Both the position numbers and the translations under genes were made by a program. Source: Escherichia coli (GTDB lineage Bacteria > Pseudomonadota > Gammaproteobacteria > Enterobacterales > Enterobacteriaceae). From it: DNA of 64,000 nucleotides. Below, in pieces: positions 3,347 through 48,673 of this stretch; within the stretch, counting starts at the first letter, position 1; each line of letters begins with the position of its first letter. The stretch lies in the NCBI RefSeq assembly GCF_001677475.2, contig NZ_CP015229.1. The stretch is one strand, 5' to 3'. The notes under the pieces are model-generated. The model was not told the origin of the DNA. It saw only the letters and a program-made list of their open reading frames with translations, and ran no database searches.

Positions 3347-3514
3347 AGAGACTCCCGTATACTTTCTTCAAAAATAAATGAAAATAGTTCTTATTTCAAT
3401 TACGGAAAGACTCTTTTTTAAGCAAAGAATAGAAATATGAATAAAAATAATGGGCTACCAAAAGTAGCCCATTGACAAAAAATGCGGCGATACCGGAAGG
3501 TATCGCCAACACAT

Positions 3515-28931: not shown

Positions 28932-30113
28932 ATGACTAACAGCAATCGCATCAAGCTCACATGGATTAGCTTTCTCTCCTACGCACTGACCGGTGCGTTG
29001 GTTATTGTCACCGGGATGGTGATGGGAAATATCGCCGATTATTTCAATCTGCCTGTTTCCAGTATGAGTAACACCTTCACCTTCCTCAACGCCGGCATTT
29101 TAATCTCTATCTTCCTCAACGCCTGGCTGATGGAAATCGTCCCGTTGAAAACGCAGTTACGTTTTGGCTTTCTCCTGATGGTGCTGGCGGTTGCCGGTTT
29201 GATGTTCAGCCACAGCCTGGCGCTGTTCTCGGCGGCGATGTTCATTCTCGGGGTGGTCAGCGGCATCACCATGTCGATTGGTACATTCCTGATAACACAA
29301 ATGTATGAAGGGCGTCAGCGCGGTTCCCGCCTGTTATTTACCGACTCCTTCTTCAGTATGGCTGGGATGATTTTCCCAATGATCGCCGCGTTTCTACTGG
29401 CGCGCAGCATTGAGTGGTACTGGGTTTATGCCTGCATCGGGTTGGTGTATGTCGCTATTTTTATTCTGACCTTCGGCTGTGAGTTCCCGGCGCTGGGCAA
29501 ACATGCGCCAAAAACGGATGCTCCGGTAGAGAAAGAAAAGTGGGGGATCGGCGTACTGTTTCTCTCTATTGCGGCGCTGTGCTACATCCTCGGTCAGTTA
29601 GGTTTTATCTCCTGGGTGCCTGAGTATGCCAAAGGCCTGGGCATGAGCCTAAACGACGCGGGCACGCTGGTAAGTAACTTCTGGATGTCATACATGGTCG
29701 GTATGTGGGCGTTCAGCTTTATTCTTCGCTTCTTTGATTTGCAACGTATTCTGACCGTACTGGCTGGTCTGGCTGCGATTCTGATGTACGTCTTTAACAC
29801 CGGAACACCAGCACATATGGCGTGGTCAATTCTCGCTCTGGGCTTCTTCTCCAGCGCGATCTATACCACCATCATCACCCTGGGTTCACAGCAGACCAAA
29901 GTACCGTCGCCAAAACTGGTTAACTTTGTCCTGACCTGCGGGACCATCGGTACTATGTTGACCTTTGTGGTTACCGGCCCGATTGTTGAACATAGCGGTC
30001 CGCAGGCGGCACTGCTTACAGCAAACGGTCTGTACGCTGTCGTCTTTGTGATGTGCTTCCTGTTAGGTTTCGTCAGCCGTCACCGTCAGCATAACACCCT
30101 GACCTCTCATTAA
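28932..30113 (+). CDS. tsgA: MFS-type membrane transporter TsgA
   Basis: 393-aa 12-TM-like [24 protein letters not shown]. Confidence 0.9.
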
Positions 30114-36231: not shown

Positions 36232-37620
<1,389 letters not shown>

Positions 37621-41263: not shown

Positions 41264-42349
41264 TTAAATACTGGCAATACTCTCACGCAAAATCCGCAGC
41301 ACCGTCTCTTCACCGCTGCGATTTGGGTTAATACGAATCGCGTAATGTTCGAGTTGCGGATTCGCCTGGCGAAACGTTCCGGAAAGGCGATAAAAAAGCG
41401 GCGGGATCTCATATTTCGACTCTGCACCAACCGGGTAAGGCAAGGCACCGCGCTTTTGCGCCTCTTCCAGTACTCTGGCGGCAATCGGCTGATGAAACTC
41501 CACAATCAACACCTTCGACTGTGCATTGGCAATCACCGCGCTTTTCACGTCCGCCACTGCGCCACCGTTAAGTAAAGCCAGCAACCGTTCAGATACCCCC
41601 GCCTGCACCGCGTGCATCACTGGCGCAAACACCAGCCCACGCAAGACTTCCAACGCCTGCGCGCCCTGAATCTGGCTGCCGCCGGAGTAAAGCGTGGCGC
41701 GAATACGGTTGATAACATCAGCATCGCCTACCACCGCGCCAACACCCTCTGGCCCAAATAGCTTGAAGCAGGAAAAAGTCGAGACATTCGCCCCGCATTC
41801 GCAGCCGATTCGCGCTACCTTCATCACCGCATAGTTGTCATCGGTTAAGGCTGGAACACTTGCCGCGCGCAACGTTGCCAGCACATCTGCCAGCACATAG
41901 CTATCCTGCGGCTGCTGGCGCGTATGCTGCACCAGCGCGGCATCTGGTTGTTGCTCGTCGACAACCTGCTTCAGTGCCGACAGGTCATTGAAATCAGCAG
42001 TGATAAGCGTCAGCCCCATCTGCTCAATAATGACCTGAGTCGTCGGGTAAACCGGCGCGTCATGCACCAGAAGACGCTGCCCCGGTTTGAGCAAAACCGC
42101 CAACGCCGCACGAATCGCTCCAGTACCCGCGCCCTGCACCAGCGCCGCAGCCTGTGCGTGAAATGCATCAGCCAGCACCTGTTCCACACGCTGGGTAATG
42201 CGCGGTTGATTCAGTCCCGGCGTTAAGCCTAAATCACCGCCAGCAAGAAACTCGCTGCCGGGAAAATGGCGGCAAATCGTGTCCACCAGCGCAAACTGCT
42301 TTTGCTGCGCCTCAATAAGCGTCAGGCTTTGCAGAGGAAACGTCTTCAT
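41264..42349 (-). CDS. yhfS: Predicted PLP-dependent enzyme YhfS (fold-type I-like)
   Basis: 361-aa ORF; candidate PLP-lysine in STFSCFKLFGPEG; last gene of yhf cluster. Confidence 0.8.
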   Translation of the reverse strand: MKTFPLQSLTLIEAQQKQFALVDTICRHFPGSEFLAGGDLGLTPGLNQPRITQRVEQVLADAFHAQAAALVQGAGTGAIRAALAVLLKPGQRLLVHDAPVYPTTQVIIEQMGLTLITADFNDLSALKQVVDEQQPDAALVQHTRQQPQDSYVLADVLATLRAASVPALTDDNYAVMKVARIGCECGANVSTFSCFKLFGPEGVGAVVGDADVINRIRATLYSGGSQIQGAQALEVLRGLVFAPVMHAVQAGVSERLLALLNGGAVADVKSAVIANAQSKVLIVEFHQPIAARVLEEAQKRGALPYPVGAESKYEIPPLFYRLSGTFRQANPQLEHYAIRINPNRSGEETVLRILRESIASI

Positions 42350-42360
42350 AGGTGCCTTCC

Positions 42361-43665
42361 TTAAGCTGGAACAAACAGACCAAGCCAGTAAAGAACATTC
42401 AGCAGAATACCGGTGATCATTACTGCCACGACCGGTGCCGCCATTTTCTGTACCGGACGGCCCAGGGATTCGTTGAAGAAGTAAATGGCAACCGCGATAG
42501 AGAATCCGGTATAATCCGCCATTTTAATTGCTGCGAAAATCGAACCGACCAGCAGCGCCACTTCCATCAGCATATTCATGGCGTTACGGATGTTATCCGA
42601 CGCATTACGCACCGACGGATAGCGCCCCAGCCATTTGCCAATCGAACGAAGCAGTAAGACTTCCGCCGAAATAACCACTGCGCCTAATACCGCTGCAACC
42701 ATCGGATTCGGCGAGAGATAGCCCACCGCATAAACAAAGGTAAAGCCCGCAACTGCATACACGCCAGTGGCTAACGCCGTGGTGGCAATCAACGGCACAA
42801 ACCCCAGTCCGCGCATAAATTCTGCCAGAGCCGCCTGATTAATCAGCGTTTGCGATTGTTCCGGCGTTACGCCTGCGGAATATGCTTTCTCCAGTGTGAA
42901 GATCGAAACTTCGCTACCAGCAAAAATCTTCATGCTGGCAACGGCGGCAATCAATGCTCCCACGATGGCGATATACGGTAAGTTTTTGATAATCCGCGAC
43001 GTGCGTTCTTCAAACACCGAAAGCCCGCTGGCATCAATGTCATTTTCATCACGATGACGCAAGTCGTGAGTTATCGCGATCCCCAGCAGCATCACCATGC
43101 CAATAAAGATTTCGATGGATTCAGGGTTAAGATGTGGGAAATAGCGCACGACGACCACACGGGTCATCAGTACCACCACGGCGGCGATCAGACTTTGCTT
43201 CCAGCCAAACTGGTAGAAAATCGCCACCAGCGGGAACAGTGCAAAAGCTGAAACCACCGGCGAGCTTAATTCCCCCAGGCTACCTAATACATCCACCGGT
43301 AGCGCGGTCAGCAGCTGGTTTACCGGCAACAGGCAAGTAAGGATCTACACGCCCCAGATAGCGCCAAGACCAAACGCCATCAGGCTGTTTATCGCCAGTA
43401 CGCCGAGGATATCGGTAGGAAGAAAGAGTAACCATGCGTTGAGCAGCCCGGTTTTCAGGGTAAACGAGATCCCCACCGAGGCCACAAAACCAATGCTCAG
43501 ACCAAAAGCGATACTCCCCGCCTCGCGACGGTTCATATAGCCTTCAATCAGTTGCGGCAGGATCGGGCGGATACCGTCATGAAAAACGGCCGCCGAGCGA
43601 TGCGCCAGAAGCGATGTCATACCCGTCAGGCACGCCACCACGATAATCTGAATATACAGATCCAT
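42361..43665 (-). pseudogene. yhfT: yhfT membrane transporter-like gene interrupted by in-frame TAG at 43345-43347 (106-aa N-terminal ORF + 322-aa remainder in same frame)
   Basis: ORFs 43345-43665 and 42361-43329 share one reading frame, separated only by TAG plus 5 sense codons; 106+1+5+322 = 434 codons, the length I recall for intact YhfT. Confidence 0.75.
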
Positions 43666-43676
43666 AGTCGTGCCTT

Positions 43677-44030
43677 TTATTTCAGATGGTTAATCAGCAT
43701 CGGAATCGCGTGTTCGACATGCTCAACGGAAAGCCCAAACGCCACTTTCCCTTCGGCGATCATTTTGGCGATATGTTCGTCTTTCGCTTTAATGCCTGGT
43801 TTGGCAATGGTGCAACTTTTGTTATAGCCAATCACCGCGATGGCAATCGACAATGCCGCGCCCGCACCGGTATTACACGCGCCGATGTAGTAATCCAGTT
43901 GCCCGGATTTCACTTTCATTGCCGCTTCCATGTCGTTGTGAATGAAAACTTCAAAACGGCCAGGAGCCGTCGCTTCAATGGTTTTTTTAATCTGCTCACG
44001 CTGTAAGCCTGCAACACCAATCTTTTTCAT
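43677..44030 (-). CDS. yhfU: Uncharacterised protein YhfU (DUF family)
   Basis: ORF 43677-44069; probable start MKKIGVAGLQ at 44030 (117 aa). Confidence 0.8.
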   Translation of the reverse strand: MKKIGVAGLQREQIKKTIEATAPGRFEVFIHNDMEAAMKVKSGQLDYYIGACNTGAGAALSIAIAVIGYNKSCTIAKPGIKAKDEHIAKMIAEGKVAFGLSVEHVEHAIPMLINHLK

Positions 44031-44040
44031 GAGTCTGTCC

Positions 44041-44919
44041 TTATTGGAAAAATTGAGAGGGAGTTTCACGTAACATCACATCCACATCGGCCTGACTGAA
44101 TCCTGACTGGCGCAATTGCGGAATAAAGGTGGTCAATAAATAGTCATAGCCATAACCACCGTTGGCTTTTAAATGGGAGCGGCGCGTAATATCCATCGAC
44201 AGCATGACGCGGTTCAGCAACCCACGGTCGCGTAGCGCATGAAGCATCGCAATACGCATTTCGTCCGGGTAGTAACTGTTCTTACCAATGGTGTCGAACT
44301 GCACATACGCGCCGAGATCGATCATCTTCAAAATGTTGTCGAGGTTGTCTTTCAGATCGCAGTGACCAACGGTGACGCGCGAAAGATCAACTCCGTGGGC
44401 TTGCAGTAGCGCCAGTTGTTCCAGACCCATGGTGCTAAAAGAGGTATGCGTGGAGATCGGACGTCCGGTCTGGTTATGTGCCAGCGCGGCGGCAATAAAC
44501 ACCTTCTCTTCCAGCGGCGTAATCTTCCCTTCGCTGGAGCCGATCTCCGCGATGATCCCGGCTTTCAGCTCCGTGCCATCGATACCCTGTTCAATTTCAT
44601 CGACCATCTCCTGCGCCAGTTCCTGCACGCTGCGGGTCGCCACATGTTGCGGGAAAAACGCGTCCTGGTAATAACCGGTACAGGCCACCACGTTGATCCC
44701 GGTTTCGCGCATTACATCGAGCATAAATTGCGCATTGCGCCCCATATAACGGTTGGTCATCTCAATCACATTACGCACGCCCTGGGCCATCAGGTCGTTC
44801 ATCTCCTGGCAAATGAACGCATACTGATCAAGGCGGCAGTCCACGTTGTTTTTAAAGCCTGAGAGATCAATATGCAGATGCTCATGGGCGAGGGTGTAAC
44901 CCGTCGGATCAAAACTCAT
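44041..44919 (-). CDS. php: Phosphotriesterase-homology protein (amidohydrolase superfamily, binuclear metal centre)
   Basis: Probable start [20 protein letters not shown] (292 aa); HxH metal-ligand motif. Confidence 0.9.
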
Positions 44920-46142
44920 AGGGTGTCTCCTGCAAACCGGAGGGAGGAAAGAAAAGAGCAACCATTTTGTGGCGGTGGCGCACGGAAAAATTCACACACG
45001 GTAGCCCCCACATCAGAAAGCGTGGTGCGCACACCGAGTTGCGTGTGGACCAGCCCTTGCTGATAAACCAGCACCGGCACCATTTCGCGGGTATGGTGGC
45101 TGTGACCGATTGTCGGATCGTTACCATGATCCGCCATCACGACCAGGCAATCATCTGGCTGCATCACCTCAACAAGCCGGGCAAGGTTTCGGTCAACGAC
45201 CTGCAAACGTTCGGCATAACGTGCGACGTCTTCTGCGTGACCAGCGAGGTCGGTTTCCTGGATATTGGTGCAAATAAACGCCGTCGGATGCGTGTTAAAT
45301 TCGTCGAGGGTGATATCCATAATCCGCTGGCTATCCACCAGGTTTTGCCAGCTCACGCCATAAGGATTGCTGGCAATATCCGCCACTTTCCCCACCAGCA
45401 CGGTTGGTACGCCCACTTCATACAGTTTTTGTGGCACCTGCACTTTATCATCGACACCGTAGCCCATATGCACGACCTGGAAGCCGTTGTCATAAGCGCC
45501 TGAACGCGGCGCATTGATACCAATAAAGCGCCCTTCTTTGCTTTCTGCGGCATCGAGAATGCGTTGACTGTCGGGTAACAGGCCGCCAAATGTAATGACC
45601 CGACCGACCTGTACCTGCTCACGCACAATACGACCAATTTTGATTGCGTCGTCAAAAGAGATCACAGAGAGATTGGCGGTGATGTTATAGACCTGGCCTA
45701 AATCCGCCTCGAGATTATCGCCAATCGCAACCGCCTGATTGACCCACAGAAATTGCAGATCATCGCCACGGCGCTCCACCTGCCAGCCTGCGGAAACTAA
45801 TGCCTGCTCAACACGGTCAATCACATCGCGAAAGGGCATCCGCAGCGGCGGTAACGGGCGCGTGCCTAAAATTTCCTGATGCCCCATAAAGGTATCGCCA
45901 CCTTCATGTTGCAGCTCTGCCACGCCCCAGGTTGCGGAGTCTGACGGCTGCATATCTCCAGGCGCATAACCTAATGCGTTGATTAGCCCCATTTTCTCCA
46001 GCATTGGTAGCTGCAAATGCGGCAACTGGCTCAGGATGTGACCACAGGTATTTGCCCCGGCATCCTGCGGACGCACCAACGTGACATCTTTCATTGCCCC
46101 TACGCCAAAGCTATCAATCACTAACACCACAAATCGCGCCAT
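44916..46142 (-). CDS. yhfW: Phosphopentomutase-like protein (alkaline-phosphatase superfamily)
   Basis: 408-aa [22 protein letters not shown] resembling DeoB N-terminus; stop overlaps php start. Confidence 0.85.
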
Positions 46143-47305
46143 TACGCCTCCAGAGGGTTGCCGAGGCTGTCATAACGACCCACAATCTCTGCCGCGCCAC
46201 GCTGAATACCAGACACCAGCACCACATCGCTACGGGTGACAAAAATCTGCGTGCGAAAACAGAGCACCACTGCACTGCTTACCGGATGCTCACCTGCCAG
46301 CGGCAGGGTGTAGTCGATACCGCTGTCATCCACGGCTTTGAGATATGTTTCAGTCACGCTTTGATTCTCTGGCGTAAACACCAACGCATGTTGCGCATGA
46401 CCACGACGGTAATAACCGCCGCCGTAGCAGTAGCTGTCACCACGGAAGTGATGGGAAATTTCGCTCAGCCAAAGCATCGCGATACGTTCAGGCTGGTCTC
46501 CCTGCTGGTTTACCGGAATCGTCCCCGTCAGTGCATGACCGGGTTCGGCATGAGTCACACCGTATTCCGCCAGTAATGGCAGCGAAGTGCAGCTGGTCGC
46601 TGAAGGCGCGTTCAGTTGCTCAATCGCAATACCAGATTTCGCCAGTTGATCCCGTACCTGTATCAGCGTGTGAAGATTCGGTGTCGGCAAAACTTTCCCG
46701 GCAGCCTCATCCCAAAGCAGGCAAGGGAAATGGGTTAGTCCGGCTAAATGCAGCCCCGGCAGTTTCTTAATTTCAGCAACCACCTCGTGCAGCGAATGCT
46801 GTACAAAACCGCTCTCCTGCCCCGGATAAAGAAAATCATCGTCGCTATAAACTTTGAGCAGCACAGACTGGATTCGCCCGGCCTTCACCGCCGCCGCAGA
46901 AACTTCCCGCGCTTTGTCGAGAGTAAACACGGTGATGACGTCGGTGCCCTGTTCAACGGCGTCAGCAACCTGATGACAAGGGATTTGTACCAGATGCCCC
47001 TGATGCGCCACCGGCAAACCAGCGCGGCGCATGACTCGCGCCTCTTTGTAATCCACCGCCACAATGCCGCTGTAGCCCAATGCCAGCAGTTTTTCCGCCA
47101 GCCACGGATTACGACCGAATTGTTTGGTCATCAGATACAGTTCAATGCCGTAAAGCCGTGCCGTCTCAATCAGCCGCTTACCGTTTTCCAGTATCTGATC
47201 CACGTCGATCACCCAGCTGTCCGGGGCGATCTTGCCCTGCTGCCACAGGCTTAGTGCGGCGGAAATCAGCGCCGGGTTCTGGCGTTTCAATGCTTCTACA
47301 AACAT
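46142..47305 (-). CDS. yhfX: Alanine-racemase-fold (fold-type III PLP) protein YhfX
   Basis: 387-aa ORF; overlaps yhfW start. Confidence 0.8.
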
Positions 47306-47388
47306 CTTGTTGCCTCGTTTCTGTTCCTTGAGTTAAATATTCATTTTTTTGAATATTTAGGTTGTGCGACGTGGATTTGTCGGGAGCT

Positions 47389-47751
47389 TCAAACCTCTTC
47401 GTTAGCAGCCATCCATAATCCATAAAGGTTGGCCAGCAAATAGCCTTCTTCACACGGGTTAACTTCCAATGCGAATTCCTTCAACAACACCTGATGCAAT
47501 TGCACAACGGCTTGCCAGTGGCTGGATTGCGCCAGCTCTGCCAGCAACTCGTTATCCAGTGGCTCAATTTCTTCACCACGGCGACTGCGCATAAGTGCAC
47601 TCGCCATATGTGTCATCGCCATCGTTCCTTGCTCACTGCGCACCGGCAGATGGCACTCTTTTTCCAGTACGTTGACGACCTGCATCATGCCTTTGCAGAT
47701 GTCCTTATCGATGACCCCTGCATCGCAAAGCAGGTTGAGTCTGGTTTCCAT
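47389..47751 (-). CDS. yhfY: Small uncharacterised protein YhfY
   Basis: ORF 47389-47871; probable start METRLNLLCDAGVIDKDI at 47751 (120 aa). Confidence 0.7.
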   Translation of the reverse strand: METRLNLLCDAGVIDKDICKGMMQVVNVLEKECHLPVRSEQGTMAMTHMASALMRSRRGEEIEPLDNELLAELAQSSHWQAVVQLHQVLLKEFALEVNPCEEGYLLANLYGLWMAANEEV

Positions 47752-47767
47752 TTCAGATGCCTTTGGT

Positions 47768-48673
47768 TTAATAACTGGGTTCCTGTTCCCCACTGACCAC
47801 TCGTTGTTGATGGGCAAGCAGGGCCTGTTTATCAACAACTGCACGCAGCAATTGTTGCATTGGGTAATCATCGACTCGCGTCAGGACCACGGCTTCGGTG
47901 GCCTGTAAAAATCGCGGATCGTCTGTGAGCGGCGTCGCTTCTAATCCCAGCATGGTCAGTTCGTTTTCCGCCACCACGTTCCAGATCACCGCATCAACAT
48001 CGCCTTTAACAATGCGTTGTAAACTCTCGTGATAAGAGAGATCGACACGTTCCACATCACTATCGCCAAAAAAGACATCGGTCATGATTTTCTGATCCGC
48101 CGAACGGTTATCCAGCCCCACGCGCTTCACGTTTGCGGACTCGCCTTTACGGCATATCAACTGGTGTTCGCCAACGTAGGTGTGCGGCCCCAATTCCAGC
48201 GCGAGGCATAACCCTTTTTGCGTGAGATAACTTTCCGCCGCCAGTCGGGAAACCACCGCCATGTCATACACGCCGTTAAGTAAACACTCCACGCGAATAT
48301 CCGCGCCGCGCATATGCGCATAGTAAAAAGGAATGCCATCAAACTGGGCTTTCAATCCGCTCGCTAAACCTTCGTACAAGCGGGTATAGGGCAAAGGCAT
48401 CGCACATACCACGTTGTTGATATCCACATGGCTCAGCAATGCTTTGTTATCCATCTCGACCAGATAACTGCCATTGCGCCCACGGCGTTCAATCCGTATC
48501 GCTCCGCTTGATTCCAGTGTTTTCAACGCTGCCTGCGTCAGGCCAACGGATGAACGGCATTCAGTTGCCAGCTCATCTATGGTTTTCAACCTATTACCGC
48601 ATTTTTCACCCAACAAATAACGGGCCAGCGTCGTGATAACGACGCCTTCTTTTTTGATAAACGTTCGACGCAT
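47768..48673 (-). CDS. yhfZ: Putative transcriptional regulator YhfZ (N-terminal HTH-like, C-terminal ligand-binding-like)
   Basis: 301-aa ORF, first gene of the yhfZ-yhfS co-directional cluster. Confidence 0.8.
   Translation of the reverse strand: MRRTFIKKEGVVITTLARYLLGEKCGNRLKTIDELATECRSSVGLTQAALKTLESSGAIRIERRGRNGSYLVEMDNKALLSHVDINNVVCAMPLPYTRLYEGLASGLKAQFDGIPFYYAHMRGADIRVECLLNGVYDMAVVSRLAAESYLTQKGLCLALELGPHTYVGEHQLICRKGESANVKRVGLDNRSADQKIMTDVFFGDSDVERVDLSYHESLQRIVKGDVDAVIWNVVAENELTMLGLEATPLTDDPRFLQATEAVVLTRVDDYPMQQLLRAVVDKQALLAHQQRVVSGEQEPSY

Follow-up and report, generated by a model that had tools for sequence, protein, structure and literature searches.

A yhfT pseudogene with an internal amber codon in Escherichia coli and the probable recent origin of its stop

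The window, by which we mean the whole 64-kb stretch of DNA analysed here, is a fully syntenic segment of the E. coli chromosome. Its gene order starts with gspK-gspO, bfr, bfd, chiA, tufA, fusA, rpsG, rpsL, tusBCD, fkpA, slyX, kefGB and yheSTU, continues with prkB, crp, yhfK, argD, pabA, fic, ppiA, tsgA, nirBDC, cysG, yhfL and frlABCDR, and ends with yhfS through yhfZ, trpS, gph, rpe, dam, damX, aroBK, hofQ through hofM, mrcA and nudE. Sixty-four genes were mapped onto the window from strain 1190, and an internal stop was found in yhfT alone, the other 63 genes being intact; neither IS elements nor frameshifts were detected in the mapped genes of the 64 kb in this comparison. Gene-by-gene mapping with strains 1190 and EC96 placed yhfT between yhfU and yhfS in the cluster yhfZYXW-php-yhfUTS, which is the position of the YhfT family. 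The start of yhfS lies 11 nt past the stop codon of yhfT and has a Shine-Dalgarno (SD) sequence of its own (AAGGAAGG). The features of the locus are listed in Table 1.

Table 1. Features of the yhfT locus and its cluster, with positions in the window
Feature	Position	Strand	Basis or description
yhfS, PLP-dependent aminotransferase, 361 aa, intact	41264..42349	-	ORF list, strain 1190 comparison
yhfT pseudogene	42361..43665	-	434 sense-codon positions plus terminal TAA, one amber codon within
C-terminal remnant ORF, 322 aa, TTG start called mechanically	42361..43329	-	ORF list
Premature TAG, codon 107	43345..43347	-	Sole internal stop of yhfT
N-terminal remnant ORF, 106 aa, ATG start	43345..43665	-	ORF list
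yhfZ, yhfY, yhfX, yhfW, php and yhfU, all intact	43677..48673	-	Strain 1190 comparison: internal stops 0, gaps 0

Translation of yhfT from 43665 to 42361 gave 435 codons, with a single internal stop at codon 107 in addition to the terminal stop. On the minus strand the TAG reads at 43347..43345 in the context ...ATC TGG GGC GTG TAG ATC CTT ACT TGC CTG TTG CCG GTA.... The mutated base is window position 43346, or nucleotide 320 of the gene, with T replaced by A on the gene strand; on the plus strand, positions 43345..43347 are CTA in the window versus CAA in intact alleles. The 106-aa and 322-aa ORFs have their reading frame in common. An earlier note, made from this sequence alone, had described them as same-frame ORFs split by a TAG and five codons, and translation confirmed its sum of 106 + 1 + 5 + 322 = 434 codons, which is the length of YhfT as annotated in E. 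coli. A Dam site (GATC, window 43341-43344, minus strand) starts on the last base of codon 107 and is kept in both alleles (TTGATC to TAGATC), with no known link to the mutation.

When codon 107 was restored to leucine, the product matched the Pfam family PF10797 (YhfT) end to end (residues 6-431, model positions 1-430 of 430, E = 1.3e-179), which rules out the chance juxtaposition of two ORFs. Both remnant fragments also carry the PF10797 tag individually in public gene calls, and a YhfT family model was not found in NCBIfam. The yhfT sequence of the window is 95.6-97.9% identical to annotated yhfT in the E. coli genomes compared, and the matches listed from complete E. coli genomes all carry it as a single annotated gene, 'YhfT family protein'.

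Codon 107 was found to be TTG in EC96, in N3, in two close relatives of the window described below, and in the yhfT remnant of strain KFu022. In the alignments with EC96 and N3, the TAG stands where these strains have TTG (Leu), a T to A transversion being the sole difference there, and over gene nucleotides 1-512 N3 differs from the window at nucleotide 320 only. Leu107 is invariant in an alignment of six proteins that includes strain 1190 and E. albertii, the YhfT of the latter having 434 aa, 91% identity and Leu107. The normal sense codon, which the earlier note had proposed to identify by alignment with other E. coli, is thus TTG, and its reading of one nonsense substitution in place of two genes is borne out, since the relatives have TTG and the repaired protein is a single YhfT domain. 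A locus that is normally two genes is at odds with these comparisons: yhfT is one gene among the matches listed and Leu107 is invariant. Neither a conserved stop nor a conserved two-gene layout, as in recoding or a natural split, was seen among the homologues compared. Intact yhfT (WP_000366862.1 of EC96; EHS3286108.1) has TTG at codon 107, whereas the TAG of the window closes the frame after 106 residues; save for this codon, the window protein is the same as EHS3286108.1. A functional YhfT member has a single open frame of about 434 codons, and in the window this frame is interrupted by the TAG. Therefore, we conclude that the window holds a pseudogene of the YhfT family and not a functional member.

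The ancestral state could be read directly from close relatives. The contig L013 (GCA_019140535.1) has 5 differences from the window in 17,305 positions and L014 (GCA_019138615.1) has 3 in 10,470, in each case including T for A at 43346. These two sisters are 99.97% identical to the window, and their protein is exactly the repaired YhfT of the window; the exact repaired protein of 434 aa (P0031, e.g. EHS3286108.1) was found on 24 contigs from E. coli isolates. The stop is therefore the derived state, with TTG as the ancestral codon in L013, L014, EC96 and N3. The presence of TTG and of an identical repaired protein in sisters this close means that the mutation is very recent, and from these comparisons the TAG appears to have arisen very recently within a single E. 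coli clone, with no other decay in yhfT since. Between the window and EC96, yhfT shows 24 synonymous, 2 missense and 1 nonsense differences, and the ratio of 24 synonymous to 2 missense changes indicates that purifying selection acted on yhfT up to the appearance of the stop.

We consider it very probable that a spontaneous T to A transversion changed Leu107 (TTG) to amber (TAG) in one E. coli clone, within a sub-branch of recent date, and made yhfT a young pseudogene. The yhfT product would be a polytopic membrane protein, the presumed transporter of the yhfZYXW-php-yhfUTS cluster; its translation would end after 106 residues, within a membrane-spanning segment, and the outcome would be a non-functional fragment, with the 3' three-quarters of yhfT left untranslated. 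The loss would be neutral or nearly neutral and yhfT a dispensable accessory gene. Events of this kind are known: a dispensable gene has undergone ordinary decay, and no new biological feature is involved. Like classical amber (UAG) mutations and the lineage-specific pseudogenes of enterobacteria, the yhfT lesion is a one-base stop within a non-essential gene; it is young, limited to a single clone and has intact flanks. It differs from them in nothing substantial and is a textbook case.

The 1,305-nt yhfT sequence was used as a query against 5,426 complete E. coli genomes, with presence defined as at least 80% query coverage. Full-length yhfT DNA was found in 5,064 of the 5,426, and a yhfT match was absent from 357. 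A 65-mer centred on the TAG had an exact match in none of the 3,913 complete E. coli genomes that matched the surrounding 65-mer. An exact 41-mer of the TAG allele was also searched for in 100,044 GTDB species-representative genomes and had no match, a result that is uninformative since the lineage belongs to E. coli and is not the one chosen to represent the species. By exact-sequence look-up, the 106-aa product was found on 34 contigs in 58 blocks, and from the look-up we counted L003, L004 and L005 as TAG alleles, together with the duplicates listed for them, and no others.

L004 (GCA_018683435.1) and L005 (Logan ERR10435018) carry the TAG and share 99.98-99.99% identity with the window across 16.3 and 10.5 kb. 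Each has two differences from the window, of which one is shared by L004 and L005 and the other is its own; because of this pattern, the window, L004 and L005 are three distinct sequences. The look-up groups L004 with 4 further similar places and L005 with 8, the grouping being that of the look-up only. The allele is thus present in independent isolates, namely the window, L003, L004 and L005, with distinct flanking SNPs. Several other candidates were rejected as TAG alleles. The contigs of L006, L008-L010 and L012 end at ...GTGTT, i.e. with the normal TT, that of L007 stops one codon earlier, and L011 proved to be a Mu-end junction. P0003, a 106-aa product found on 240 contigs, one of which is a 5.3-Mb chromosome, was rejected as a widespread TAG allele: it results from a frameshift near codon 97-98, has the C-terminus ...ALVLALSGAC, and its equal length is a coincidence.

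The same TAG also lies in a diverged background. In L003 (GCA_035825615.1), the yhfT gene with the TAG (L003:8001-9305, equivalent to window 43665-42361) is found in a sequence that shares 96.5% identity with the window across 10.4 kb (3.5% diverged) and from which the frl operon is missing. Around the stop, 293 bp are identical to the window (43555..43261), and only 5 differences occur over 44221..42997, versus 3.5% overall. Simple clonal descent does not explain the TAG of L003 at this divergence. The 5' yhfT haplotype is widespread, being present in N3 and, at 99% identity or more over 301 bp, in 172 complete genomes; two origins are therefore possible: the stop may have been transferred in a short patch of recombination, whichever way it went, or the same transversion may have recurred independently.

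Other broken alleles of yhfT were met in other lineages. Strain O145 RM12275-C1 (L017:1336-2639, DXE55_RS21035) has a frameshift near codon 76 and is labelled 'frameshifted' in RefSeq. In KFu022 (NZ_CP091677.1, L018:2336-3417, L6L66_RS19925), yhfT has a TAA at codon 43 and IS1A at nucleotide 329, nine bases downstream of the TAG site of the window; yhfS, frlRDCBA and yhfL are deleted, and IS1 adjoins cysG. Both strains resemble the window in that yhfT was inactivated independently while the upstream genes of the cluster stayed intact; they differ in lesion and lineage, the window having one substitution and no other damage. In the genome-reduced laboratory strain DGF-298, yhfY through yhfL are all missing, so that the cluster is lost (PMC10652928). 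Thus yhfT is dispensable and repeatedly broken. Sporadic pseudogenes are common across strains in this region: tsgA (window 28932-30113, plus strand, 1,182 nt) is intact here and frameshifted in strain 1190, the best-matching complete genome, and yhfS is frameshifted in EC96 and intact in the window.

The rejected contig L011 (Logan ERR5260610) is broken within yhfT at nucleotides 319/320 (L011 positions 3384-3409), corresponding to window 43347/43346 and hence to the same codon. The inserted sequence (TGAAGCGGCGCACGAAAAACG...) is the exact terminal 21 nt of phages Mu and SfMu (Mu positions 36697-36717), which points to the insertion of a Mu-type prophage or a mini-Mu transposon. On this contig, php is split as well.

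The number of such lesions raises the question of whether loss of yhfT is adaptive and recurrent, with selection acting against a membrane protein that lets in a harmful compound or a toxin or that a phage uses as receptor. At least five independent kinds of disruption (TAG107, TAA43, two frameshifts, and IS1 and Mu insertions) would fit such selection, as would the same TAG in two backgrounds 3.5% apart and the location of lesions of other strains (frameshifts, IS1, Mu) within a few dozen bases of the TAG site. However, decay in this region is general, as the pseudogenes yhfS of EC96 and tsgA of strain 1190 attest, and a few independent hits are expected in any non-essential gene of 1.3 kb given hundreds of thousands of assemblies. 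About 93% of the complete genomes, moreover, keep yhfT, with a strongly synonymous substitution pattern. We therefore regard selected loss as unlikely and prefer to explain the loss of this dispensable gene as neutral or nearly so.

The probable consequence of the stop was considered from the repaired protein. A 19-residue hydropathy scan of repaired YhfT showed many hydrophobic segments, as expected of a polytopic membrane protein, the strongest peak being at residues 95-113, so that the stop at codon 107 falls inside a predicted membrane span. The 106-aa remnant would comprise approximately the first three hydrophobic segments and end within the next (residues 95-113). The earlier note had suggested that the downstream piece could be expressed from the internal TTG at 43327-43329. 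We find this unlikely: the computed energy of the duplex with the anti-SD sequence was +0.4 kcal/mol for the TTG at 43329, compared with -3.2 at the start of yhfT itself and -8.3 at that of yhfS, so that SD complementarity is absent, and the start would lie inside a hydrophobic segment. The 322-aa ORF is probably not translated as such. With the stop in the most hydrophobic segment and an internal TTG without SD sequence, loss of YhfT function is likely. Untranslated mRNA ahead of a gene may lower its transcription through Rho-dependent polarity, and transcription of yhfS, with 984 nt of untranslated mRNA ahead of it, may be reduced in this way despite the strong SD sequence of its own.

Two routes by which YhfT activity could persist were weighed, and each has a very small probability. 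One is that the TAG is read through, by an amber suppressor tRNA or by natural UAG readthrough, and full-length YhfT is made. The lack of further damage in yhfT would agree with this, though it is equally expected of a very young pseudogene. No tRNA genes were found within the 64-kb window, and amber suppressors are rare among natural E. coli isolates. The plain TTG in the sisters gives no hint of a recoding signal, and the sequence 3' of the stop is ordinary conserved coding sequence; these points argue against readthrough.

The other, which we judge just as improbable, is that two polypeptides of 106 aa and about 322 aa, the second reinitiated at the TTG at 43329, 15 nt past the stop, form a split membrane protein. 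Terminating ribosomes can sometimes reinitiate at such a short distance, and a restart codon five codons past the stop would allow this occasionally; gene callers, too, report both pieces. Yet SD complementarity is lacking before this TTG, as described above, and TTG is a weak start codon. Moreover, the break lies within a hydrophobic segment and not in a loop, residues 107-112 would be lost, and a two-gene organisation occurs in no intact homologue compared. A non-functional fragment from a young pseudogene is the better account of the locus.

The suggestion, also made in the earlier note, that the TAG stems from faulty sequencing or assembly of a gene that is really intact is the least probable of all and is rejected: the single-base difference from otherwise near-identical sister isolates is what such an error would look like, but the TAG is common to the window, L004 and L005 despite separate flanking SNPs and occurs in L003 in another genomic background, and an identical substitution error in independent projects is very unlikely.

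For annotation, the two remnant ORFs of Table 1 should be merged into a single yhfT pseudogene that has an internal stop, and not be recorded as two genes. The TAG allele is a clean marker for the sub-branch of the clone and may be used in strain typing; beyond annotation and typing its value is little. Our literature searches yielded no publication on a function for E. coli yhfT or for its cluster; most matches to 'yhfT' were to an unrelated acyl-CoA ligase of Bacillus and Staphylococcus. Phenotypes tied to the yhf cluster may be missing from this strain, and if the function of yhfZ-yhfS is worked out, the natural TAG and TTG sisters would make a ready near-isogenic pair.

The closest of the 5,426 complete E. 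coli genomes is 97.5% identical to the window over 24 kb (30000-54000). By this comparison the lineage of the window appears to be missing from the complete genomes, and its close relatives exist as draft genomes. An origin from Shigella or a cryptic clade, as the best identity of 97.5% might suggest, was rejected because of the full synteny, the freedom from IS elements, the intact genes and the deposition of the relatives as E. coli. The most divergent part of the window is the yhf cluster, with 94.5-97.6% identity per gene to strain 1190 except for yhfU (99.7%). In the same comparison, yhfY, yhfX, yhfT and yhfS are 94.5-95.6% identical, and rpsL and yhfL 100%. This uneven divergence suggests that the yhf cluster is mosaic and has undergone recombination.
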